From Callorhinchus milii (taxonomy: Eukaryota): a stretch of DNA of 64,000 bases. The stretch is taken from contig NW_024704756.1 in NCBI RefSeq assembly GCF_018977255.1, forward strand, positions 2,790,001-2,854,000. The letters are read 5' to 3'. Positions 6,840 through 64,000 of the stretch are shown piece after piece. Every line of letters starts with the position of its first letter. The stretch's first letter is position 1. The notes under the pieces are model-generated. The model was not told where the DNA came from, ran no database searches, and saw only the letters and a list, made by a program, of their open reading frames with translations. A program made the translations under genes and the position numbers.

Positions 6840-8605
6840 TGCATCCCCTCCCTATCCTCACCCCACACAATTACCCATCCGACAATTACCCATCCCTGCT
6901 TCCACACCTTTGAACCTGTCACCCCCTCCTCTGTCTCCACCACTGTAACCTCCATGAAGCTCACCACCTGCTCCCTGGACCCCATCCTCACCCCTCTCCT
7001 TAAATCCCAGCTCCACCTCCTTGCCCCATTACTCGCCGACATCATTAACCCCTCCCTGTCATCTGGCACTGTTCCTTCCCCCCTCAAAACAGCCATTATC
7101 ACCCCCACCCTGAAGAAACCTTCCCTTAACCCATCATATCCAGCTACTGGCCCATCTCAAATCTCCCTTTCTTATTCAACATCCTTGAGAGAGCCGTTGT
7201 CTCCCCGCTTTGCTCTTTCCTCCCACTCCCTCCATGAACCCCTCCAATCGGGTTTCCGTGCTGCCCACAGCACAGAAACTGCTCTGGTCAAGGTCACAAA
7301 TGACCTCCTGACCATGTGTGACCAGGACTCCCTCTGCGTCCTTGTCCTCCTCGACCTCTCTGTCGTCTTTGACATCATAGACCACTCAATCCTCCTCCAC
7401 TGCCTCTCCTCCCATCTCAACCTTCAAGGTTCTGTCCTTCACTGATTCAGGTCCTATCTTTCACACCACTTCCATTCCGTTGCGGCAAACGGCTTCCCCT
7501 CCAGCCCCCACACTGTCTTGTACGGTGTTCCTCAGGGCTCTGTCCTCGGTCCCCTCCTCTTCACCCTCTACATGCTCTCCCTTGGTGACATCATCCGCAG
7601 ATATGGGGTAAGTTTCCACATGTATGCGGATGACACCCAACTCTATCTTTCTGCCTCCACCCTGAACTCCAGGACTACTGGGGTCCTGACCGACTGCCTG
7701 TCCGACATCAAGTCCTGGACGATAGCGAACTTTCTCCAATTCAACGGCAGCAAGACTGAGGCCCTCTTGATTGACTCGTGCCAGTGCCTCTGCACCTAAG
7801 GCGCTGGCAGCATCAGCCTCCACAGCTGTACCCTCAACCTCACTAAGTCAATCAGGAACCTGGGCATCTTGTTTGACCCTGAACTGTCCTTTCTCCCCTT
7901 CATCCGCGCCATAACCGGCACTGCCTACCACCACCTACGCAACATTGCCAGACTCTGCCACTGCCTCACCCCTCAGGCTGCCCAAACCCTCACCCACGCA
8001 TTTGTCACATCAAGGCTCGATTACGGGAACTCTCTCCTCATCGGCCTTCCCAACTCTTCCCTTCACAAGCTGCAGATCATCCAAAACCCCTCAGCTCGTG
8101 TACTCTCACGCACCAGGCTCCGGGACCCCATCACTCCCACCCTCGCCCGACTCCACTGGCTCCCCATCCCCCGGAGGATCGAGTTCAAGATCCTCGTCCT
8201 CACCTTTAAGGTCATCCGTGGCCTTGCCCCCTCCTACCTCTCTGACCTGCTGACTCCCTTCCAACCTGCCCGCTCTCTTTGTTCAACAACGGGCTCCATT
8301 CTGCTCCATGTCTCCCGCCCGACCCGCCCTACTATCAGTGGCCGGGCTTTCAGCTTCTCTGTCCCCACACTCTGGAACTCCATCTCACTATCCCTTGGCC
8401 TCGCTTCCTCCCTTGCCTCCTTCAAGGCCGGCCTCAAGACGCTTCTCTTCGATCGTGCCTTAGGTCTCCCTCCCACCTCTCTGTCTTCCCTCACCCCTAC
8501 ACCACCCCTCCCCCATGCTCGGGCCCCGACACCTGACTGTTCAGCACTTTGGGACGTCCTCCCGACGTGAAAGGCGCTCTATAAATGTAATTTTGTTGTT
8601 GTTGT
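6840..8605 (+). mobile_element. 5'-truncated L2-clade LINE (RT fragment, frameshifted)
   Basis: Motifs [47 protein letters not shown] across frames. 3' end GGGACGTCCTCCCGACGTGAAAGGCGCT followed by a (TTG)n tail. Confidence 0.92.
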
Positions 8606-9143: not shown

Positions 9144-9359
9144 ACTATGGATAATAATACAACTTGCATTTATATTGCGCCTTCCACACTCGGCGGCGTC
9201 CCATATCAAATGCAAGGATTATAATAATCCGACCCATTGTGTGAGTGGCAGCAGAGCATTCAGGTTAAGTCAGTGCAGAAAACATCTTCAAAGGGAAAAA
9301 CAAAAATGTTTCAAGTCCTGTAGTGCGTTGGTTAGAGCACTCGCCTCACAAACCACAAA

Positions 9360-9711
9360 CGCGGCTGTGGGTGGGGACGCGGCTGTGGGCGGGGACGCGG
9401 CTGTGGGGGAGCGGCGGCGGGGACGCTGCTGTGGGGGACGCGGCTGTGGGGGACGCGGCTGAGGGTGGGGACGCGGCTGTGGGGGACGCGGCTGTGGGTG
9501 GGGACGCGGCTGTGGGGGACGCGGCTGTGGGGGACGCGGCTGTGGGGGACGCGGCTGTGGGGGACGCGGCTGTGGGCGGGGACGCGGCTGTGGGTGGGGA
9601 CGCGGCTGTGGGGGACGCGGCTGTGGGGGGGGACGCGGCTGTCGGTGGGGACGCGGCTGTGGGGGACGCGGCTGTGGGGGGGGACGCGGCTGTGGGGGAC
9701 GCGGCTGTGGG
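9360..9711. repeat. GC/CpG-rich minisatellite (GGGGACGCGGCTGTG)n, 15-18 bp units
   Basis: More than 20 tandem units visible, flanked by a SINE head (9316-9355) and SINE tail (9712-9843). Confidence 0.95.
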
Positions 9712-10264: not shown

Positions 10265-13200
10265 ATGGCGCAGGAGAAAGGTGAGGCGGCGGCACCGGGT
10301 CCTCCCGGCCCCGGGGAGGGCGGGGCGGGGCAGTCACTACACTACAGCCCCCGGGGGTGGGGCAGCCCTCGGGGTTACATTGGCCCCCGGGAGCCCGGAG
10401 CCGGAGCCGGGAATAGGCTGTTGGGTTTATAGCCGCCCCTCGTGTCTCAATCAGGAGGGAGAGAGGGAGTGTGTGAGACAAGAGAGAGAAGGGGTGAGAG
10501 TGGGGGGGAGAGAGAGAAGGGGTGAGAGTGGGGGAGAGAGAGAAGGTGAGTGAGTGGGGGAGAGAGAAGGGGTGAGTGGGTGAGAGAGAGAGAAGGGGTG
10601 AGTGGGTGAGAGAGAGAGAAGGGGTGAGAGTGGGGGAGAGAGAGAAGGTGAGTGAGTGGGGGAGAGAGAGAAGGGGTGAGTGGGTGAGAGAGAGAGAAGG
10701 GGTGAGTGGGTGAGAGAGAGAGAAGGGGTGAGTGAGTGGGGGAGAGAGAGAGAAGGTGAGTGAGTGGGAGAGAGAGAGAAGGTGAGTGAGTGGGGGAGAG
10801 AGAGAAGGTGAGTGAGTGGGGAGGAGAGAGAAGGTGAGTGAGTGGGGGAGAGAGAGAAGGTGAGTGAGTGGGGAGGAGAGAGAGAAGGGGTGGGGGAGAG
10901 AGAGAAGGGGTGAGTGAGTGGGGGAGAGAGCGCGAAGGGGTGAGTGAGTGGGGGGGAGAGAGAGAAGGTGAGTGAGTGGGTGAGAGAGAGAAGGGGTGAG
11001 TGGGTGAGAGAGAGAAGGGGTGAGTGAGTGGGGGAGAGAGAGAGAAGGTGAGTGAGTGCGGGAGAGAGAGAGAAGGTGAGTGAGTGGGGGAGAGAGAGAG
11101 AAGGTGAGTGAGTGGGGGAGAGAGAGAAGGGGTGAGTGAGTGGGGGAGAGAGAGAAGGGGTGAGTGAGTGGGGGGGAGAGAGCGCGAAGGGGTGAGTGAG
11201 TGGGGGAGAGAGAGAGAAGGGGTGAGTGAGTGGAGGAGAGAGAGAAGGGGTGAGTGAGTGGAGGAGAGAGAGAAGGGATGAGTGAGTGGGGGAGAGAGAG
11301 AGAGAAGGGGTGAGTGAGTGGGGAGAGAGCGCGAAGGGGTGAGTGAGTGGGGGGGAGAGAGAGCGAAGGGGTGAGTGAGTGGGGGAGAGAGAGCGCGAAG
11401 GGGTGAGTGAGTGGGGGAGAGAGAGAGAGAAGGGGTGAGTGAGTGGGGGAGAGCGCGAAGGGGTGAGTGAGTGGGGGAGAGAGAGAGAAGGGGTGAGTGA
11501 GTGGGGGAGAGAGAGAGAAGGGGTGAGTGAGTGGGTGAGAGAGAGAGAGATGGGGTGAGTGAGTGGGTGAGAGAGAGAGAGAAGCGGTGAGTGAGTGGGG
11601 GAGAGAGAGAAGGGGTGAGTGAGTGGGGGAGAGAGAGAAGGGGTGAGTGAGTGGGGGAGAGAGCGCGAAGGAGTGAGTGAGTGGGGGGGAGAGAGCGCGA
11701 AGTGGTGAGTGAGTGGGGGAGAGAGAGCGCGAAAGGGTGAGTGAGTGGGAGAGAGATATTATGTCTGTGTAAAAGAGTAATGTGCATGTTGCATTGCTCT
11801 GGGGCATTCCCACGTCCAGGGGGTCAGTGACTGATATTGGTCGTGCCACGGGTGCAAGAGCTCAGGGTTTACAGCTCCGCCCCGAGTGGCTCTGGCCGAG
11901 GGCGAGAGAGCGAGCCCCCAGGCCCCCGCACTGCCCAATAGGCTGCAGAAGGTGCGGGGGAAAGAGATGGGGAAAATACTCAGTTGCAGCCTCGATATAA
12001 CGCATCTCAATATAATGTCCTGGACCTGCAATGTACCTGTACTGTATTCTCTTTCTGTCCAGGTGGCTTTGTGTTACGACCCCGCGCCTCTCCCTCCGTA
12101 TGTATAACATGGTGAAACTATACGTGTTAGTACAGGGAATATCTCGCTGTCCGTGAACATGGATCCCTGTTGACACTTCAACTTCAAACAAAATACACTG
12201 TCAATCCACTTTACCAGTATATCCTGTGAAGTGCTTTGAAATGTCTTGATGACCCGATAAGGTGCTATACCAAAAGCAAGGATTATTACTATTATTATTA
12301 ATATTATTAAGTTGCTGAATTGGTTTATGGTGGAGTTCTGAAATGTGGCCATGTTGAGGGTACCATTGCAAGACTGCCCTGCAGGTCTAACAGTTGTTAA
12401 TCAGTACGGATCCCTCTGGCTCATTGTGTAAAGCCACCTTCAGTCCCCTGTGTTGAGTTAGCGTGTGATGGTGATTGCTAATTTGAATTCTGGATACTTT
12501 GATTCTGCCTAACGTGTCTTGTTGTTTTTGCCTTTCATGCAAGTTGAATAGTCTGAGAACATTATAGGTGTTTTAGCTGTGTGGAGAGATGTGCCAAGAT
12601 GTGCTTGATGGCCCACATCAAAGTTAGAGGGAACAAATTGCTCTTAAAGATGTCACTTGGGTCCTGATCTGAGTGTCCAGGGCTAGGGAATCAAAATCAA
12701 CTCGATTTACTGCTGTTGGTCAGCGATCTCCTATCGATGACCTGTGAAGATGTACGTTGGATAGAATAACAATAGACCATCAGCAGCAATTTACATTTAT
12801 GTAGCGCCTTTCACGTTGGAAGGACGTCACAAAGAGCTTCACAATTTCCTGGGTGTCTGAGCTGGAGGGGAGGGGTGGCCAAAAGCCCAGTCCAAAAAAT
12901 AGGTCTTAAGGTGGATTTTTGAAAGTGCAGAGGCAGCGGCAAAGTGAAAAGTCTCCGGAATGGAGGCAGAATGGCTGAACATTTGGCTACTGTTATTGCG
13001 ACGAATTGGGTGAGGGATGCGAGGCAGGCTGGTGTTTGCTGAAGCAGGAGGCTTGCGGGAGGTTTGGGAAGTAGGGTAGAGGCTTGAACATGGTTTTGTC
13101 GGTTCCTCCAGCGTCTACCAAGCCGCCAATGCTTGACCAGATGCCTTCAGTGAAGAATGGCTTGTTGTCTGGGGAATCCGCCTGAAATTGTTCTGGGGAT

Positions 13201-16200: not shown

Positions 16201-18277
16201 TTACAAACTCTTAAATGAGCTCTTAAATACTGCTCAAATGGGCAGCCCAAGAGCTTTCCTGACCATTTATTTTGTTTGGTGTTTATAGCTACGGTTCGGT
16301 GTCTTGAGTTCAGTGCGAGAGCTTAATTTTTCATGATCGTCCCCAATCAATACAATGTGACACATAGTATAACTGTGACTTCTTGCTCTGCTCTGCAAGT
16401 GAGATCTTTTCATACGTGGGATCCAGACAGTGAGCATCTCTCTTCCAGAGTTCAATTCCAACTTTGAATCATAGAATCAAAAAATCCTACAGCACAGAAG
16501 GAGGCCATTTGGCCTATCGAGCTCTTTGAAAGTGCTACCCAATCAGCCCCACTTCCCCACACTTTCCCCATAACGTTACCATTTTTTTTTCCTTTTCAAG
16601 TAAATATCCAATTCCCTGTTGAAAGTTATTATAGAATCTGCTTCCACCACCCTTTCAGGCAGTGCATTCCAGATCGTAACTACACACTACGTAAAAAAGA
16701 AAAAAATTCTAATCATCTCCCCTCTGGTTCTTTCAGAATATCTTAAATCTGTATCCTCTGGTTACCGACCCACCTCCCAGAGGAAACTTTTTCTCCTTAT
16801 TTACTCTATCAAAACTCCTCATAACTTGGAAGGGGGGAATGACTGATATTTCTCTGTCTTCCCCATCCTCGAGCTGCCATGGCCAACTGTAGCAGCCCTC
16901 CTATCCTCACTGCCATCATGCTTGAGAGCCAATTGAGCACATGCCTATTCCTAGCTCACATGGTGCATTATGTGTTGAAATATGATGTGCTGTGGATGTA
17001 TTTCTTGGGGCTCATTGCAAAGGTGAAGTCTGATTTTCACGGGTTTCCTTTCAGGTGGCCAATCACACGGGGTACATCACTGTTGACTGGAAGCGAGTGG
17101 AGAGAGACGTAAACAAGGCGAAGAAACAGTTGAAGATTGGCAAGAATAAGATACCCTCGGAAGTACATGGCGTCCTGGAAGAGGTACATATACAACAGTG
17201 TGCAGTCGGTCAGATCAGCTGTAGATCATGCTAGTTCTATTCCACTAAAGAGTTTAAACAGCGTAGACAGAGATACCCACATATCTAACCATTCTCAGGC
17301 CTTCCTTGGCTTTAAAATTGCTGCTCCTTTAATAGGAACTGAATATTTAAATTTTGATTTAATGTAAGTTGACCTTTTAAACCAAAGCTAGAGTGATTAC
17401 CTTTACACCGGGATATAATCTTCTACTATCCATAAAGATGGTTTCAAATAACCATCTGATTCACTTACTGTGTGTTTGGAATAACCTAGTGTCCAGATCT
17501 AATTCCAAAATGGTCTGTCTGATAATAGCAGGTCTATCTGAAACAAATCAAACATTCTCTATACGTGAAGAAGGGAACAGAGGCCTGGAAAGTGCATGAG
17601 GAAAGGTGGAGTATTAACACTGACATGGACTAGGTGGGCTGAATGGCCTGTTGCCATGCTATAATGATGGTCTGTGTAATTCACTGCAATGAAAGCAAGT
17701 CCACAGAATGAAAAAGTGCTGTCTGTTTAGCCTTTAGCAGTGGGCGGCAAGGGTGGAAGAGGCTGAAAGGGAGACAGCACCTTTTTGCTTCGGGTCACCT
17801 TTCTACAGCTGGAGCAGAACAGCCAGTTAATATGTGGTATAAACCCAGCAATACACCAGCTCTAGATTTTAGCACTAGAATTAATCATTCATATCTAAAC
17901 GTATCACCATCTGTATGTGTTAGTAACACTCTGTAAGTGTTAAATTTATTGTTGCTGGTTTAAGCTTGCTGCCTCAAAACATGATTGTTGTGATTATACT
18001 CGAGTCTCAAGCTGATGGTTACTTAACACTTGCAGGAATACGTTTACTCATTTTGGTTGAAAAAAGTTGGGAGTTTTGTATAAATTTAGTTGGAACCTGT
18101 TAAGCTTGTTCTCCAATATTGTGGACTGCCCCTGACACCTCCTCTGTACAGTGTGTTAGCAGTGAGTAACAACTAAATCATTCTGTGTTCTCCACACAGG
18201 TCACTGTCTTTGTGAAGAAGAATATTGTTCTCACTGGCGGCTTTGTTGGTGGTTTCTTACTTGGACTCGCGTCATGA
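10265..18277 (+). CDS. FUNDC2: FUN14 domain-containing mitochondrial outer-membrane protein (FUNDC2), 5 coding exons, 150 aa
   Basis: Exons 10265-10280, 14874-15027, 15893-15968, 17055-17183, 18200-18277, all GT-AG with compatible phases (453 nt). Protein [33 protein letters not shown]...[55 protein letters not shown]...[37 protein letters not shown] and adjacency to CMC4/BRCC3 favour FUNDC2 over FUNDC1. Exon 1 is the least certain. Confidence 0.9.
10455..11756. repeat. 1.3 kb purine-rich tandem repeat (GAGAGAAGGGGTGAGTGAGTGGGG-like) in FUNDC2 intron 1
   Basis: Direct inspection; it produces the low-complexity 599 aa and 446 aa ORFs. Confidence 0.95.
14090..14410 (-). mobile_element. L2 3' fragment in FUNDC2 intron 1
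   Basis: [13 protein letters not shown]...RPTIGG.AF...HLKTLLF. Confidence 0.72.
16467..16830 (-). mobile_element. CR1 3' end/3' UTR fragment
   Basis: AATCATAGAATC...ACAGCACAGAAGGAGGCCATT...TTCCACCACCCTTTCAGGCAGTGCATTCCAGA. A related copy is at about 43470-43590. Confidence 0.65.
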
Positions 18278-22426: not shown

Positions 22427-23721
22427 TCAGTCCAAAAATTGCTTGTTTTTTTCTTCCTGCTTGATCAGGAAGCCTGAACAGCAGACTGACCTCTTTGCGT
22501 GAATCTTGCAACACTTATGCATTTCTTCGATCACATGCTGACATTTGCTTTCCTGATAATGATAAGCTGCAAAAGAAAAGTGAACAAGAGCAGTGTGATA
22601 CACCCAGAATTCTCTCGCTAACTACAAGACTTCAAGCATGCAAGAGATGTGCTAATTCAGTGGTTGTTAAAATAATACTTGCATTTGATATACCGTCTTA
22701 TAATGTTGTTGAGACATCTCAAAGCTCTTCACTGAACATACTGTACACTGAATTGATTGTGTTTATTGAGAGTGAAATGAGGTACCCAACAGCGCACAGC
22801 AGTGTCCCACAAACTGTGGTGATTTGAGTGACCAAATTTTTTTAGGGATTATTACCCCTGGAAAAGTGATCCACCAATCGACTAACAACTGGGTTTTTCG
22901 GGGTGTGGAGTAAGGAAAGTTTCCCAACATTTCTCCCTGCCCAGTAATCGAACACGGGTCCTCTCGCTTGCAAGTCGATTACTCTAACCGCTAAGCTACA
23001 GGACTCCTGTAGCGTGTTGGTTAGTGTATTGGTTAAAGTGACTATCTAGCAGGAAACTAAACCATACAGATCTGGAAGGTCCACTTTGAGGCTGTGTCCA
23101 AGGCAGTGGGATGCTACCCTGCGTAAGGGGCACTCTATAAATGTAAGTTGTTGTTATGCTGAGTTAGCTAATCTGAGACAGGGCAGCACTGGAGTACTAT
23201 AATTGTCCTAATGTTTGGGAGAGAAAAAAACAACCAGGGTTCCTAATCCCAATTTGCTAAATATAAAGTACTAATATAAATAATAGCCAGTACTCGGCAT
23301 CAAACCTCCTGTGCCTGCTAAACTGAATGGAACTGCTGTCTATTCCTTGTAACAAAACATCACTCAAGCAGCCCTAATGCAGGAGGAGATAGGACCAGGT
23401 AAAATATTAAATGAAGACTCCTCCCTATGAGATATCTGCACCAGTCTTTGTCAGCCCATGCCATGGTCCTTTAAATAAAGACAACCTTAACACATAAACT
23501 TAAATAATAATAATAATAATCCTTGCATTTGATTTTGAGTTTTATCACATTGTCTAGACATCTCAAAGTGCTTCAGAGGATATATTGTACAGTGGATTGA
23601 CGGTGAACTTTGTGAGCGAAAAGCGGCAGCCAGTTTGCGCACAGCAAAACCTCTAAACTTCACCTTGTAAACACTTCTGTATTTCACAGGCCTGGGTCTG
23701 GCAGGGGTCTCTGGTCGACAT
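22427..23721 (-). CDS. CMC4: Cx9C motif-containing protein 4 (p8 MTCP1NB), 2 coding exons, 65 aa
   Basis: Minus-strand exons 23721-23664 and 22566-22427 joined by a phase-1 GT-AG intron: MSTRDPCQTQACEIQKCLQAYHYQESKCQHVIEEMHKCCKIHAKRSVCCSGFLIKQEEKNKQFLD*. It matches the CMC4 pattern DPCQ.QACEIQKCLQ...ESKC...KCC...RSV.CSGF and lies head-to-head with BRCC3 as in mammals. Acceptor upstream of the ATG at 23732-23734; candidate non-coding first-exon donor at 25042-25041. Confidence 0.93.
22670..23008 (-). mobile_element. tRNA-SINE in the CMC4 coding intron
   Basis: Same family as 33396-33729 (TCGAAC...TCTAACCGCTAAGCTACAGGACTCC). Confidence 0.75.
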
Positions 23722-23834
23722 ACCAACACGTCTGAAAATAAGAATACAGAAAATGACTTGTTGCAATGTATGAAGTGTGTTGGTTTTAGGCTGCTCCTGC
23801 GCTACACAGTGAGATGGATCCTTATAGACCACAA

Positions 23835-24160
23835 CTACTCGCTAACTAACGTACCAGTCAACAGGAGTTTCAGCAAGAGACTGGATTGGGCCCTTAGCTG
23901 TGAAAACTGCCAAAGCCGTTAATTGTGGGTTACTGACACAGTGCAAACGCAGCACTGGCATGTGAGGAGTTTGAGGGGATTGTGGCAATGGCAGTTCTCA
24001 CCACGTGTGATATTTGAGCCAGTGTCCTGTCTGTGTATAACCGTCAGGTCCGAGGGAACGGATGGCTGGATATGGACTATGGAGTTTGAGACTCGGCTGT
24101 CAATACAGCCCTATACTTATTTTAGATGTTTTCAGGTAATTGGACACCTCTGTCCCCATT
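23835..24160 (-). pseudogene. Candidate degenerate MTCP1/TCL1-family (p13) relic inside CMC4 intron 1
   Basis: Exon-like segment 23897-23855 (ttttcacag / gtacgt) reads LRAQSSLLLKLLLT, versus MTCP1 C-terminus VRGVQELLLKLLPDD. Upstream segment ~24160-24002 reads ISIGLY*QPSLKLHSPYPAIRSLGPDG/LYTD, versus VPLGDAARPSHLLTSQLPLMWQLYPEERYMD. In-frame TGA at 24102-24100 and a frameshift near 24040. Position is syntenic. Manual alignment against a remembered sequence. Confidence 0.55.
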
Positions 24161-24652
24161 ATCTTTTTTCGTAAATGTGTTGCCGCATCACTCGAGCTTC
24201 GTGCTGTTTTGATATATAAATGCATTTTGTATTTATTTGATATCACGTCTCCAAACACAGAATGCCTTATGCACAGACTCCCTCTGGCTGTGCCTTATAC
24301 ACAGACACGCCCACCCTCCCCGTCTGACTGTTCCTTGTGCCAGACACCCCCCATCCCTCACCCCACCCCCGTGTCCCCCCCCCCCCAACCTCTCTAGCTG
24401 ACTCCGCAATTGTGTGCTGCTGCGTTTGCCAACTTTGCTGTTGCTGTTGTTGTTGTTTGAGCGCCTTGGGACGTCCTCCCGACGTGAAGGGCGCTACGCA
24501 AATGCAATCTTGTTGTTGTTGTTGCCTACGGGTCACAGTAAATCCTGTGAAGGCGCTTCGGGACGTCCTTCCGACACAATGTGATACAGCGCTAAACCAA
24601 ATGGAAGGATTATTGTTGTTGTTATTGTGATGTACAGAGTCTGTCTGACTCT

Positions 24653-25011: not shown

Positions 25012-25042
25012 GAGCTCTGCCTGACAGCCCCCCCCCCCGTAC

Positions 25043-25500
25043 CTGCCTGGAGCCGCCGGTGTGTGCACCCGCTAATCTGTCCCTCTTCCCCCTTTGATCA
25101 CTTGGGATTCATTCGTTTTTTTCACATACATTTGGGCAAAAATAAAAGGGTTAAAATCACACCCGAGAATGACAGACATTTGCACAGACAGCACTGGAGC
25201 TTCACTTTTATGTATTTTTATTTATTTTTGGTGGGGGACGTGTGTCTGTGGGGGGGTGTGTGTGGGGAGGTGTGGTGTGTGTCTGTGGGTGTGGGTGGGA
25301 GTGGGGGTGTGTGTGTGGGGTGGGAGTGGGGGTGTGTGGGTGGGGTGTGTGTCTGTGGGGGTGTGTGTGTGTGGGGGGTGGGGGGGGATTGTTGTGTTGG
25401 AGGCTCCGGAACCAATGCTCTGCGGCGCCGTTTGCACCCGGAGGGGATGTGTCGGGGGGTGGGGGTGACTTCCGGTGAGCGGTTGGCGGAGGCCGAGATG
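25043..25500. promoter_or_regulatory. Bidirectional CMC4/BRCC3 promoter
   Basis: Head-to-head genes about 450 bp apart. ETS/GABP motif ACTTCCGG at 25468-25475, YY1-like GATGGCGG over the BRCC3 start, CpG-rich to about 26300. Confidence 0.6.
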
Positions 25501-28500
25501 GCGGTTTGCGGGGTCCACCTGGAGTCGGACGCCTTCCTGGTGTGTCTGAACCACGCTCTGTCCACCGAGAAGGAGGAGGTGATGGGGCTGTGTATCGGGG
25601 AGGTGAGGCCGACAGCCCTGAGCAGCGCCCCAACCCCCCCCATAGCAACAGGCCTCCCCGCTCCCTAGCAACCGCCCCCTGGGCAGTGTTACCCTGGCAA
25701 CCGCTCCGGAGTCTCCCTAGTAACTGCCCCCCCATCCCAATAACAACAACAACAACAGCAACCCGCATGTTCACAGCGCCCCCTCCCCTCCCCTCCCCCG
25801 GGTTGGCGTCTCACGGTAGCGGTGCCTCCGGCCGAGCCGGTGGGGGGGTTGGGGGGGGGGAGGGGTGTGGCCCTGATAATAATCCTTGTATTTGACCCAG
25901 GGCCTTGTCAGGTGGTTGCGGGGTCTCAGGGGGGCACCGGGCCCACGGTTACCTTGGGTTACCCGCCGCCTCGACTGTGCCGATGCCGCCCTGTCCGGCC
26001 GCTGCCCACACGCTGGACCTCACCGCCTGAACTCTCGCCCCAGGGCTCGCCCGGCTCCCTGTCACGGAACGGATCGATTTCAAGGTCCTCACGCTCGTCT
26101 GCACATCCCGTCTCGCCCTGGGACCTCCCCCTCCCTGCCTTTCCGACCGGCTTGCTCTCCGCTCCCCGCTATCCGCTGCCTTCGTTTGGCTGCATCTGGA
26201 GATGGGGACCATCTACTAAAACCTACTGGGATACCCTTCACCTTTCAGCAGCCGTCCTCACCTCGGAGTGAGGATGGCAGCTCCTGTCAAATGGCGTCTC
26301 TGTGGACAAGGCGAACATAAGAAATCTCTTGATTTTTCCTCAGGTTGACACGAGCAGGATTGTCCACATTCACTTCGTCATCATCCTACGGCGCTCGGAC
26401 AAACGCAAGGATCGGGTCGAAATTTCTCCAGAACAACTTTCTGCAGCTTCCACTGAAGCAGAGATATCCTTTCCAGTCCCCTGAGAGTGAAGCCTGCCAT
26501 CGGATGCAGCACTCTGACTGACATGGTTCCACGTTAATATTAGCTAAGGGTTGAAAAATGTGGGTGTCAAATTAATGCATGCTTGTGGGACTAAGTTCAG
26601 CTCCCACCCTCAGCTCTGATGCCCAGTCAGAATTGGCGAGCGCTTTGTGACGCCCTCCTAACGTGAAAGGTGCTTATGTAAGTAAGTGCATCAAGGTGAG
26701 GGATGTCAAAGGGAATGAATTGTCTTTATCCCTATTTGATTACAAGCTCTGTATCAAACATTTACAGTTGACATAGCACAGTTTGGATTCAAGGTAAAGC
26801 TATAATATTTTCTTCCCAATTATCATAACTTCATAGAGTTAATTTGCAGCAAAGGTTCTGATAGATGCAGGGTGCATCTTTTAAATACGTCTATCTGGAA
26901 GCAAATTATGAAGAGTATGTGTGGGTGCTGCGTAAAGAAAAGCACAGGCTTTGGGTTCCAGCCTATGTCATTATAATCCTTAACAATTCACACAGATTAG
27001 CTGAAATGACTGGCCGTCCAATGAGAGTGGTGGGATGGTACCACTCTCATCCCCATATCACTGTATGGCCTTCACATGTGGGTAAGTGTATATCTGTATG
27101 GTATATGAGCATGTTACTGCACTAGTTATTCTTGTTAATGGTCTAACAACCGTCAGTTCCTGCACTTCTAACCTCTGGAACTCCTTCCATCTCGCCCTCT
27201 TTCTATCGGTCTTTACGTCCTACCTTTAAAACGACCCTAAACCAGCGCCTTGGGACGTCCTCCCGACAAAATGTAATTTTGTATTGTACTTCTTCGACTG
27301 TATTGATGGTCACTTCCTGTTCTCCTTTCCCAGGGTCTGATCCCATTATTATGAAACACTCTGAGATGTTATCCGACATGCAGGGCACTATGTAAATACG
27401 AGCTGTTCTATGTAGTCTTTAGTTAGCAGTCGAAAGTGAACGTTCCCTTTGTTTGGCCTGGTACCTTTTTTTTTGTGTATATTTAATTAAGGGATCATTT
27501 TGGCTCAATTGGTGCGCTCTCGCTTCTAGAACAAGAAGGTTACGGGTTTGAGTCCCATGTCGGTATACTGTAGTATAACACTGGGGAAGGGCTGGGAGAC
27601 TGAAGCTACGAGTAGGTGAGATTGAGAATTGAGATCCTCATTGAGCTTAAAAAAGCATAGGAGGGTGGAATCGTCAGAGTCTAGTATAGAACTAGAGATG
27701 TGCAACATTATTGGAGGTGTTGTCCTTTGGATGAGATTGAATACTGACATCCTGTGTGGAAGTTAAAGTGCATGGGAGGGGGAATCTTGAAAGCATCTCA
27801 TGTAAATGTAATTGCCATTGCAAATTGAGTGTGTATTGTGAGTAATCTGTCCACATTCTGAAAATCCTGATGTGTTTCTCACTGTGGTGTCTCTTTATCA
27901 GATGTTCGTACACAGGCCATGTATCAGATGATGGATCAGGGCTTTGTGGGTCTTATCTTCTCCTGTTTCATCGAGGATAAGAACACTAAGGTCTGTCCCA
28001 ACTCTCTGTTTTATTAAGTACCTGTATTGCCCCCTGAGGCAATAAGTGTTGATCTGGCTCTTTCTCACAAAGTACTCAAGGGATTGGAGGCAGAGGCCAA
28101 ATCGTAGGAAAACTTTCCTGACTTTTTATCCACCTCGTGGCAGTATACAAGTTACTCTCCCCTCCTCCAACCCCATTCACAACCAGCGAATGTTGTGTAG
28201 TAGGCCTAAATTATATTAAAATATTTTCTATAAAGGTTACCCATTAGTCAAATTGCAGGATAGAATGGATCATTTCCTACTTTTTACACCTGATGTCAGC
28301 ATTAAGTGAAGGTTGTTCTGCCCTCCCAATCAAAGCTCTTACAGACCAGTTATTACATAGGTTAGAGACAGAGCAACAATTTACCTTAAACTTTGGCTTT
28401 GTAGAGTACACATATTGTACTTGTATAGCCTCTCCATTTCTCATTCTAGCGTGCTTTCACCCTTGGTAAATGAGACTGATAATTCATCATAAACTACGAG

Positions 28501-39100: not shown

Positions 39101-42100
39101 CTCCTTGTCAGCTGATACTGCACCTGTATCACTCAGTTTGTTTTTCTGGTCTGGCCACCTACTCGTTGATATATATACTCATTGATCCACTGGCAAATGC
39201 TTGTCACCTCATTGCATTGGCTTTCTTCTCCAGGTCTGTCAGCTGCCAAGCTGTTGATGGAGGCGGACTTGAATGTGGTTGTTTTGGAAGCTAGAAACCG
39301 GGTCGGAGGGAGAACATATACAATTCATGTAAGTATGAAACTGGCTACGGGTTCTGAACTTTAGGAATTTTCTGGGTCCAGAAATAGCTAGGTTGGTTAT
39401 ACAATGTGCAAAGGATCAGTTATGTGGCATGAGACATCAGGACAATCAACAACAACTTGCTTTATATAGCAGCCTTCACATGGGGCAGTGTCTCGGAGCA
39501 CTGAACAGTTGAGGGTGTCAGAGCCGCAGGAGAGAAGACATTGACGGCAGCCAAGGAATTTGGCTTCTACCTTGTTGACCAGGATCAAGGACTGGTTAGT
39601 GCTGACGTAGCCTATTATTATTATTATTATTATTATTAGCTATTAAAGATGGACAAATAGTCCTCAGTGTCTGAAGGATGGGAAGGGAAGACATTGCCCA
39701 GTTCATGCTGTACAGTGACCTGTAGAGGTAGATGTTGAGAATAGGATCAGGCTCTGCTGTAATGCTTGAGGTGGAACTGACACATTGCCAGCTGTTCAGG
39801 CTCATACCTTCGAGGACTGTGAGTGACCATGAAACTGAATCTCATAACCATTCACTGCTTACTGTCTTCAGGGGAGAAACAATAGAGGTGTTTATCTGGA
39901 GAAAAGTTACTGTGCTCTGATGCAATCTATTTCTGCCAGGGTCCAGAGTTCCAATACGCTGATCTGGGAGGATCATATGTCGGACCGACCCAGAATCGGA
40001 TTTTGCGATTAGCAAAGGAGCTGGGAATAAAAACGTATGAAGTAAATGAGAAAGAAAAACTCATTCACTTTGTGAAGGTCAGATATTTCACTTTTCTTTT
40101 ATCACTTCACCGTTGCTGTTCAAGTGGAGCGATGGAGTCCTGGGAAATTATTATCATATAGAGATCATCAATTATTTAATAATTATTACATACCATTTGC
40201 AGTAATGTATGCTTTGGGCAGTGCTGGTGCCTGTTTTGTTAACACATCTTCAACCCATCTCATAGCAACAGCCCCATGATACAGCCTATTTTGTTCAAAC
40301 CACCAATCCAGAGCCTACCAGCAGAATTGGAGGTCACATTCAACGCACTTTCCTTCATCGCACTTCAACACTCTTGAACCTAACAAAGGTCAGGACACAG
40401 ATTACCAGTAATAATAATAATAATCTTTGCATTTGATATAGCGTCATTGAGACGTCTCAAAGCACTTCACAGGATATACTGACGAGTGGATTGGTGTGTA
40501 TTTTTTGGGCAAAACACAGGAGCCAATTGCCAGAACACTGTTCCACAAACAACCATGGAGTGAGTGACCAATTTTATTTTCAGGGATTGTTAGCCGGGCA
40601 CCAGGGGAATCTCCCTTCTCTTTTCGAGAAAAGCCATGGGATCTTTAACGTCCACCTGAACAGGCAGATGGGACCTCTGTTTAACATCTAATCCCCAAGA
40701 ACTGCACCTTCAACAATGCAACACATGCTCAGCACTGCATTGGAGTGTCAGGTTAGACTATGTGATCCCAAGTGTTGTGGGCTTGAACCCACAACCTCCT
40801 GATTTAGAGATAAGAGTCCTACTATTGTGCCAGGCCGACACTCTATTGATTACAAACGCCTTTCTCTGAGATTAAATCAGAATTCAAAGACAGGGAAGTT
40901 TGCTTGGTTTGTCAGTGCAGTGTTATCACATTATTGCTTGGTCTTCGGTGCAAGGATCGTGCCCAGAGACAAAGCCTGTGCACAACCAGAGAGAGAAAAC
41001 ACAAGGAGGTTTGGTGTGTTTTAAAGGCTACTTTCTGATCTCGAGATGATAATAATCCTTTCATTTGATATAGCGCCTTATCACACCGTTGAGACGTCTC
41101 AAAGTGCTTCACAGGATACACTGTAAAGTGGATTGCTGTTTATTTTGTGTGGCAAATGTAGCAGCCAGTTGCGCACAGCAATGTCCCACAAACAGTCATG
41201 AAGCAAGATGTATTGAGGATGACAGCAGCTTCAATGCCTTCACCTTCAGAGTGTATCCATGGCAGCAAACGCAGAGCATGAGCCGAAGGGCAATTTAATC
41301 TCAAACAGTGATAGCATCACATCGGCTTTTACATCAAATAGGGAAGGAGAACACACTGATTGTTTCATCTAGGATTGAAACTGATCCTGTATAATAATCC
41401 TTCCTTACATTTGATGGAGTGTCTTTCATGTCAGGAAGAGGAAATTAACAAGTACTATATACCATGGGTTATATTTCCATATGGATAACATGTTGATAAT
41501 ACTAATAATAATCATCTTTGTATTTGATATAGTGCCTTATCACATCTTAGATACAGGGTATATTGTTAAGGTTTGTTTTTTTTTAAAACCGAACCAAAGT
41601 AAACATTTTTTTACATACGCGTGGCATAATCCAAACCCTTGTTTGGTAATGAACTTGGGTAAAGGTAACGACCGTTTCATTTGCTAGAACTGCAAAAATG
41701 AATTTAATTTAATGATACTTGACACGAGCCAGGAAATGCTGAAGAATCAACAGCTAAAGTGTTGGTCACTCAATCCACGACTGTTTGCTGTGTGCAATTG
41801 GCTGCCACGTTTCGCCCACAAAATAAGCGGTTAATTCACTTTACGCTATATTCTGTGAAGTGCTTGGAGACGTCTCAATGATATGATAAGGCGCTATATC
41901 AAATGCAAGGATTATATTATTGTTATTACTTGGTGTTATCAGACCTTTCGCAGTGGTTAAAGCAACTGGCGTCTCTGGATTGATCCATTACTGTTTATAT
42001 AGTTGCTTTTCAAGCAAGCAAATGGTGAAATTTCCTGCTTATGATATCTAACGAGAACACCCTGCACATACTGACAACTGCGTGTACGGTGAAATCCAGT

Positions 42101-62244: not shown

Positions 62245-63050
62245 AGTTTGATGCTGAGAAATGAGAGAGAAAACACAGTTGTGGTTTAAAAATGCAAAAT
62301 CTTGATGTTTGACATTTATGGCATTGGAATGTCTCAGATTCTTGGTTATCTATTGCTCATCAAAGTCTACCATTATATAGATAGCAAGTTTGACCACATT
62401 ACACAGCCCTGACGATCAGCAGCCTTCGTAACAAGGGAGAGCACAGTCATTTTATTGAATCTTTCAATCCCCCTCTTTTTCTTTTCACCCCGTAGATGTT
62501 TTCCAAGGAATCGAACTACGTTAGAGTCAAGAAAGACAATTGAAAGCGCTTAAGGAACGGGGGCGTTGGTGACATTTTGATTTCAACTGAAACCTGTTTT
62601 GGTCACAGTCAGATCTCGGGCCCCTTTAGGCAAGTGAGGCAGGTTTGTCTGTTCTCTCATGGTGGGGCAAGTCATACACGCACACACAGAAAAGTGCGGA
62701 GAGGTAACGGGATGAATCTACAGCACTGGCTGCTTCTGTGGTCTTTGCTGCACTACCTACTGTTTAATCATCTCCTCATGAAACACCTGCCACTCATGGC
62801 CCTCCGATGATTTATTGTTACATCTATGTGCCATTCCATAATAATCCTTGCATCTTCGAGACGCCTCGAAGCGCTTCAAAGGCTCGAGGGGCAGAATGAC
62901 ATACTCCTGTTTCTATGTTTCACAGGATATACTGTAAAGTGCAGTGACTGTGTATTTTGTGGGTACAAAATATTCTCAGACAAAACACAATCTCTTCACT
63001 TGGCAGGAATTTGTGAACAACAATTTGCATTTACATAGTTTAGCGCCCTT

Positions 63051-63360
63051 CATGTAGAATAAAGTGCATCTCGGATTCTGCTGGTTGGAAAATGATTAGC
63101 TTCTCACAGGCACTAGCACTGGCTCTCAAAGCCAACGTACCTCACCGCAAGAGATTAAGAACCTTGGATGTAAAGTAATTGAAAGATCGTCAGATATCAG
63201 GCTCTCATGTAGAATAAAGTGCATCTCGGATTCTGCTGGTTGGAAAATGATTAGCTTCTCACAGGCACTAGCACTGGCTCTCAAAGCCAACGTACCTCAC
63301 CGCAAGAGATTAAGAACCTTGGATGTAAAGTAATTGAAAGATCGTCAGATATCAGGCTCT
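63051..63360. repeat. Perfect 155-bp tandem duplication
   Basis: 63051-63205 and 63206-63360 read identically. Confidence 0.95.
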
Positions 63361-64000
63361 CACAAATGCTGCCCACAGCTTGCAGCAGAAGTTTAATGAT
63401 CTTTATCTGTGCTGCCAGTGAAAATTATTCCATCTGAAAGAGCAGCGAGGCATGCTGTAATAACTGTGAGTGCGATTTGTTCACAGCTTGCACTAAATAT
63501 TCAAGTGGAGTATAATTAAAGGAAGGAGATGGCAAAACTGGCCTCTAGCTATATTTATTATTATTACAACTCATTACTAGGCGGTAATAATCCCTCCGAC
63601 AGAATAATGATAAGAATTTGGTCACTTAATCCACGAATGCTTGTGAGACACTGCTGTATATGATTGTCTGCCGTGATTTGTCCACAAAATACACAGCCAC
63701 AACACTTTACAGTATATCCCGTGAAGCGCTTTGATTTGTATCAACGACGTGAAAAGGTGCTATTTCAAATGCAAGGATTATTATTATTACCATGCTGCCG
63801 TGTCGCCACGACTCTGAGTACACATTGTCTCTGTCTATCCACACTCTAACAACTGTCAATGTATCCTCATTGCCTTCAACTACTGCACTGAATACAGAAG
63901 TGCTCTCTGCATTGACTACAAATATACCATTGCGCCAGTATCCATCTCTCCAAGTAAATACCACCCCTTCTTCTGCTTATACCCACTGCACAGAGTAATA

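Follow-up and report, generated by a model that had tools for sequence, protein, structure and literature searches.

MTCP1 is a leukemia-linked partner of Akt. The human gene is housed within CMC4's first intron and has a 5′ UTR in common with it, through what the available part of one source calls "an ancient insertion event" and leaves undated there (PMC8566464). Exons 2 to 5 are MTCP1's own in human, and normal blood shows no MTCP1 splicing, according to the portion of the source at hand (PMC7537572). The question raised by the elephant shark, Callorhinchus milii, is whether the corresponding intron of a chimaera, separated from human by about 450 Myr in the available text of its genome paper (PMC3964593), holds the same gene. 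We analyzed a 64,000-nucleotide stretch of the elephant shark genome (the window) in which a sequence-only reading had proposed a hidden, disabled relative of MTCP1. Directly seen in the CMC4 intron are a pair of exon-like pieces, correctly ordered and on the correct strand, and real lesions in them; CMC4 mRNA splices past the pair. We consider it probable that this relic is a real unitary pseudogene of MTCP1 in what is likely its ancestral place.

The CMC4 locus of the elephant shark

A Pfam scan of 298 of the 673 listed open frames, covering up to 39.5 kb of the window, gave the gene order and orientation FUN14 (FUNDC)-CMC4-BRCC3, which is that of human FUNDC2-CMC4/MTCP1-BRCC3 at Xq28. An exon of the FUN14 family (17034 to 17231, plus strand; PF04930, E 2e-7) lies tail to tail with CMC4. 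The first coding exon of BRCC3 (25498 to 25602, plus strand; JAB, E 2.8e-6) lies head to head with CMC4, and more BRCC3 exons (JAB, BRCC36_C) follow on the plus strand, reaching 30786. When this first exon was used in a metagenome scan, two loci (L004 and L005) were returned, on a 57% match and on the tail of the intron, and no usable vertebrate locus was among the results. The GC-rich promoter region between BRCC3 and CMC4 (25400 to 25500) carries the motif CCGGAAGT about 30 nt ahead of the start codon of BRCC3; we take this to be an ETS-type motif. Downstream of BRCC3 lies a flavin amine oxidase exon (39170 to 39361, plus strand; PF01593, E 1.3e-9).

CMC4 was placed by Pfam on the minus strand at 22427 to 23731. 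Its second coding exon (22427 to 22566, minus strand; PF08991, E 9e-9) is 100% identical to a C. milii protein, P0002, and the sole other match to this exon is from whale shark (69%), whose CMC4 is P0003. The first coding exon is 68 nt long (23664 to 23731, minus strand), with the ATG at 23721, and is identified by PF08991, an RNA-type contig, and P0002. It is preceded by a 658-nt intron (23732 to 24389, minus strand; GT..AG) that encloses the relic. A contig of sequencing run X5, with a depth of 120, links 24390 with 23731, and 23664 with 22566, so that this CMC4 mRNA splices out the 658-nt intron with the relic inside.

Upstream of the intron is a CMC4 5′ UTR exon (24390 to 24544, minus strand), of which positions 24487 to 24390 lie within the X5 contig; its acceptor at 24546 is predicted. 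This exon is in part a high-copy repeat, the repeat portion (about 24450 to 24525) giving 40 of 40 scored matches, and its donor at 24389, spliced to the first coding exon, is weak (top 12%). A donor at 25042 (top 1.2%) predicts the end of a probable further non-coding CMC4 exon (25043 to 25100, minus strand; 5′ limit uncertain). In whale shark, CMC4 isoform X1 (P0004) has four more N-terminal residues than isoform X2, a difference suggesting that the upstream exons vary in sharks too.

The relic lies in the CMC4 intron that precedes the first coding exon, on the CMC4 strand and between FUNDC and BRCC3, which is the position expected of an MTCP1 orthologue. The human gene (p13, PF01840) has the same place and strand, with FUNDC2 beside it and BRCC3 head to head. 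That mammalian p13 exons sit in this intron, as the sequence-only reading had stated, is borne out for human by the available part of PMC8566464. The stretch from 23735 to 24330 is single copy; its one match in the genome was to itself.

Elsewhere in the window, reverse transcriptase frames with a stop between them (6840 to 7796, plus strand; PF00078) mark a decayed retroelement. Long G-rich minisatellites with 28-nt and 15/33-nt units (10481 to 11756 and 9359 to 9711) account for the large low-complexity open frames found there. An exact two-copy tandem repeat of 155 nt (63050 to 63362, 100% identical) is either a recent duplication or an assembly artifact.

Two exon-like pieces and their likeness to MTCP1

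The stronger piece is a 43-nt segment (23855 to 23897, minus strand) that is likely the C-terminal coding exon of MTCP1. Read from 23897 to 23855 in phase 0, it translates as LRAQSSLLLKLLLT, with no stop before a donor GT at 23854. By eye, 7 of 14 residues are identical to MTCP1, in register from the AG; six of the seven identities form a single Leu-rich run, and the MTCP1 peptide is the one quoted in the sequence-only reading, no search having returned an MTCP1 sequence. We assume that the comparison peptides quoted there are correct. The human gene presumably has the same short last coding exon beginning in phase 0 and the same C-terminal Leu-rich run, its exon borders being likewise assumed.

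Upstream of this segment is a 104-nt intron-like interval (23898 to 24001, minus strand) with a GT donor at 24001, a branch-like TTAAC at 23922, and a CAG acceptor. Scored with assumed frequency tables, the relic donors at 24001 and 23854 rank in the top 2.5% and 2.2% of 7428 GT sites, and the acceptor of the last exon ranks in the top 7.9% of 8706 AG sites. The RNA-shown splice sites of CMC4 span 0.1 to 12%, the same range. Between 23732 and 24360, no other minus-strand donor ranks above either relic donor. The "good splice sites" claimed for the 43-nt segment are thus present and comparable to those of CMC4, but they are fair rather than outstanding. Every coordinate given earlier for the segment, the phase-0 interval, an in-frame TGA, and a Pro-Asp-Gly triplet proved correct on the minus-strand sequence and its translation.

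The second piece is a broken middle exon (24002 to 24162, minus strand) whose 5′ limit is uncertain and which lacks a usable acceptor. Recounting by eye against the quoted MTCP1 peptide confirmed the 10 of 31 identities first reported, 8 of which fall in an ungapped stretch of 22 residues (24111 to 24046). Farther along, codons 24069 to 24040 share 5 of 10 ungapped residues with TCL1A residues 73 to 82 (PDB 1jsg_A), including Pro80-Asp81-Gly82, in agreement with the suggestion that this triplet resembles TCL1. The loss of a conserved Trp also held up on comparison with TCL1A 73 to 98: the Trp76 position reads Arg, and the second conserved Trp of this core has a possible match solely in the unshifted frame with gaps. 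The relic further differs from TCL1A at the position of Ile74, which reads Ala, and the part that would bear Asp16 is absent. Ile74 of TCL1A is a named AKT contact in the available supplement (PMC8566464). The surface that binds the AKT PH domain through these two residues in TCL1A would be altered at one position and missing its exon at the other. TCL1A also differs from the relic in location, lying on chromosome 14 according to the part of PMC8582492 at hand.

Does this likeness exceed chance? Profile and sequence searches were all blank. PF01840, with its 25-bit cut-off, was reached by none of eight single-frame pieces of the relic and by none of 148 frames around the locus, so the profile score above background that had been looked for did not appear. 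A PDB sequence search with both pieces gave no match at E 10, and 1.84 billion representative sequences held no TCL1/MTCP1 family match to the relic. The only representative match, a bacterial-type SdrD-B repeat protein (P0001), was reached through a repeated short word and is attributed to chance. A search for fused MTCP1-CMC4 predictions returned none. All relic searches were single-frame, with 14 to 33 informative residues each. In a genome-wide PF01840 search, a loose first look in which short exons can be missed, no intact TCL1/MTCP1 gene elsewhere passed the cut-off (best E 2.1), and the relic was not among the four candidates.

One of these candidates, L002 (positions 1501 to 1599 of the locus; G000:C1:69411140-69411238, plus strand), is a stop-free stretch that scored better with PF01840 than the relic did (E 0.0011 for a 45-residue piece taken alone). 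We rejected it as a second family gene: its genome-wide E is 2.5, it lies antisense immediately beyond the final exon of SMYD1 and directly behind a repeat, its donor is out of phase, no flanking exons were found by eye, and its matches to TCL1 PDB chains are weak. It is probably a chance match, and a second relic there is improbable. That a chance piece can score in this way means that a single likeness of 30 residues proves little. Two other candidates (L001 and L003) had E values above 2 and were not family-like by eye.

Chance was estimated from 526,600 bases of real DNA of the same contig, with the relic's own residues as surrogate probes. For the last exon, at least 7 identities in 14 right after an AG were found at 0 of 36,362 AG sites with the unshuffled relic probe, and 3,000 shuffled probes gave 6.7e-5 per AG. 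This corresponds to about 3 to 5e-3 (2.9 to 4.6e-3) per intron of 43 to 69 AGs, to 4 to 7e-4 if the acceptor score is also required, and roughly to 2e-6 if both splice sites are required (4 matches in 109 million trials). For the upstream piece, 8 identities in an ungapped 22-residue stretch of a 57-residue diagonal have a probability of 8.9e-4 per position. Over 41 to 300 placements, with trimming allowed for, this becomes 0.04 to 0.23, which is not significant alone; the 5 of 10 match to TCL1A 73 to 82 has a probability of 1.5e-4 per position. The weight first placed on the 10-of-31 piece was therefore too great, the strong part being the last exon. For both pieces together, with three paralogues allowed, the chance is 3e-3 to 2e-6, figures that depend on surrogate probes and an assumed reference.

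On these results a likeness beyond chance is supported for the two pieces and their splice sites, and only when they are taken jointly. Under the alternative reading, nothing but normal intron sequence lies here, possibly including a 43-nt 5′ UTR exon of CMC4, real or cryptic; it would yield a Leu-rich run by accident on translation and would have caught attention because the reader was looking at exactly this place. The blank searches, the insignificance of the upstream piece by itself, and the example of L002, which shows how family-like chance pieces can get, all speak for this. So do four RefSeq-type accessions for one CMC4 protein: they imply that several 5′ UTR exons probably exist, and such exons might account for the splice sites with no need of MTCP1. 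Against it are the joint chance of about 3e-3 even without credit for splice scores, a place that was predicted beforehand from human, a match whose phase-0 start falls precisely at the AG, and an order, strand, and spacing that fit. We consider a chance likeness unlikely.

Lesions in the relic and splicing of CMC4 RNA

The middle exon carries an in-frame TGA (24100 to 24102, minus strand), which is unchanged in contigs of runs X1, X2, and X5. It also carries a frame break within the 47 nt that run from the Pro codon of Pro-Asp-Gly (24048 to 24040) to the donor (24002 to 24048, minus strand), where the exact position of the break is ambiguous. The family has 20 codons (60 nt) in this interval, given an exon border that we assume, so that the relic is a net 13 nt short. 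A 1-nt frameshift near 24040 had been proposed, but its place is not fixed: over the 47 nt, the shifted and unshifted frames are about equally family-like, with several gaps each, and the unshifted frame remains so up to the donor. This supports only a net loss of 13 nt and not a one-base shift at 24040.

Other parts expected of the gene were not found. The phase-0 border before the last exon is present and in register, given the assumed human borders; the middle acceptor and the first coding exon did not turn up. Candidates for the middle-exon acceptor were poor (76% of AGs score as well as that at 24164, and 23% as well as that at 24098). No first coding exon of MTCP1 was found in the locus upstream of the relic, and its expected site, where the CMC4 5′ UTR exon lies, is occupied by a high-copy repeat and a 360-nt microsatellite. 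The donor at 24389 follows a Glu codon in phase 0, and the residues before it include a few reminiscent of the end of the family's first exon, in sequence that is microsatellite-like; at a guess, this donor, used by CMC4 today, may be the old end of the MTCP1 first coding exon. The longest open stretch among the computed splice forms is 51 codons, compared with about 107 to 116 residues for the family frame. With the TGA and frame break real, no open frame able to form an eight-stranded barrel remains, and the relic cannot now give a folded p13 protein.

The lesions were checked in contigs of 4 of 10 sequencing runs (X1, X2, X5, and X6), the lesion-bearing runs coming from two studies. An X2 contig (23558 to 24303) and an X5 contig from another study (23778 to 24249) bridge both the TGA and the region of 24040 without a gap, and each has a single differing letter, located beyond the exon-like pieces. 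The TGA is also bridged by X1, in which two overlapping contigs meet at 24037 to 24055. Single-letter SNPs near the relic (23917, 23937, and 24185) all lie outside the exon-like pieces and are too few for inference. The lesions are thus present in three of the four runs, the fourth, X6, having no coverage there, and these contigs confirm both lesions. Assemblies in general often contain spurious stops and shifts of one base, by which an intact MTCP1 might be made to look broken. This is extremely improbable here, given the gapless bridging by X2 and X5, the bridging of the TGA by X1, the additional absence of the first coding exon and of an acceptor, and the lack of any splice form open for more than 51 codons. 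The TGA and frame break are very unlikely to be assembly errors.

A true MTCP1 homologue might alternatively have had its splice sites kept by selection, with the 43-nt exon or a short upstream frame tuning the output of CMC4. The relic donors and acceptor still score like the RNA-shown sites of CMC4, ATGs are present at 24225, 24188, 24159, and 23961, and an unspliced contig from X5, a run guessed to be RNA, covers the stretch at a depth of 6.8. That same contig (23778 to 24249) is unbroken and flat in depth, however, and a slow neutral rate can account for the surviving sites. A joint from 24002 to 23897, or any other into or out of the relic, was absent from the 15 listed of 175 joints in contigs of the X runs. 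This absence is weak evidence against such a role, and we counted it neither way because rare forms drop out of contigs and normal human tissue likewise lacks MTCP1 junctions. Selection for kept splice sites, whether through an alternative 5′ UTR, an upstream open reading frame, or a decay-inducing exon, seems very unlikely overall.

The relic as a probable unitary pseudogene and the possible age of the family

Vertebrate unitary pseudogenes are, as a class, single copy and syntenic, with visible introns or splice sites, several independent lesions, and no intact copy. The relic resembles them in its single copy, its syntenic place, its visible splice sites, and its several independent lesions, which recur across runs, and no intact copy was found by the genome-wide search. 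Unlike unitary pseudogenes generally, it sits inside an intron of a live gene whose promoter it would once have used as well, and the region is still transcribed as CMC4 pre-mRNA. It differs from human MTCP1 in the TGA, the frame break, the missing first coding exon and middle acceptor, and the lack of a PF01840 score.

The history that we favor runs as follows. In the ancestor of jawed vertebrates, we infer, one promoter held in common with BRCC3 drove a transcript. This transcript would have been spliced either straight to CMC4 or, as in human, through three short coding exons to encode an eight-stranded barrel of the TCL1 type. The barrel gene would then have been lost in the elephant shark lineage: a repeat and microsatellite now stand at the site of the first coding exon, the acceptor of the middle exon would have decayed, and that exon would have gained its stop and net 13-nt loss. 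The relic is likely still readable through slow erosion. Among vertebrates, no lower neutral rate has been measured than that of C. milii, by the available text of PMC3964593, and this rate is the likely reason. The proposal that the nested arrangement is ancient and that p13 decayed in this lineage seems partly supported, as judged from one species.

The probable pseudogene in the elephant shark CMC4 intron has likely gone unremarked and is likely new to the literature covered. In the literature searched, the one title or abstract to take the TCL1/MTCP1 family beyond mammals was that of a flounder expression study naming both genes. Neither MTCP1 nor TCL1 appears in the main text of the elephant shark genome paper (PMC3964593). 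Five further papers concern human and mouse or mammals in the parts available (PMC12963412, PMC8582492, PMC2718698, PMC1166550, and PMC6009430). An intact shark MTCP1 may already be annotated in gene databases, beyond the literature searched.

If the relic is what it appears to be, the insertion predates the split between cartilaginous and bony fishes, about 450 Myr ago according to the available text (PMC3964593). MTCP1 would then be a candidate founder of the family and a gene that a vertebrate can lose. That the TCL1/MTCP1 family is as old as the jawed vertebrates, with MTCP1 in the CMC4 intron as its founding member and intact copies in sharks or rays, is a near-even prospect that tilts slightly against. 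The relic shows no new mechanism; what it offers is a pointer to the genomes of sharks and rays, where an intact early MTCP1 might be sought. Such copies, if they exist, would make it possible to test whether an Akt co-activator or a DNMT3 inhibitor stood at the start of the family, when the antibody-based immune system arose.
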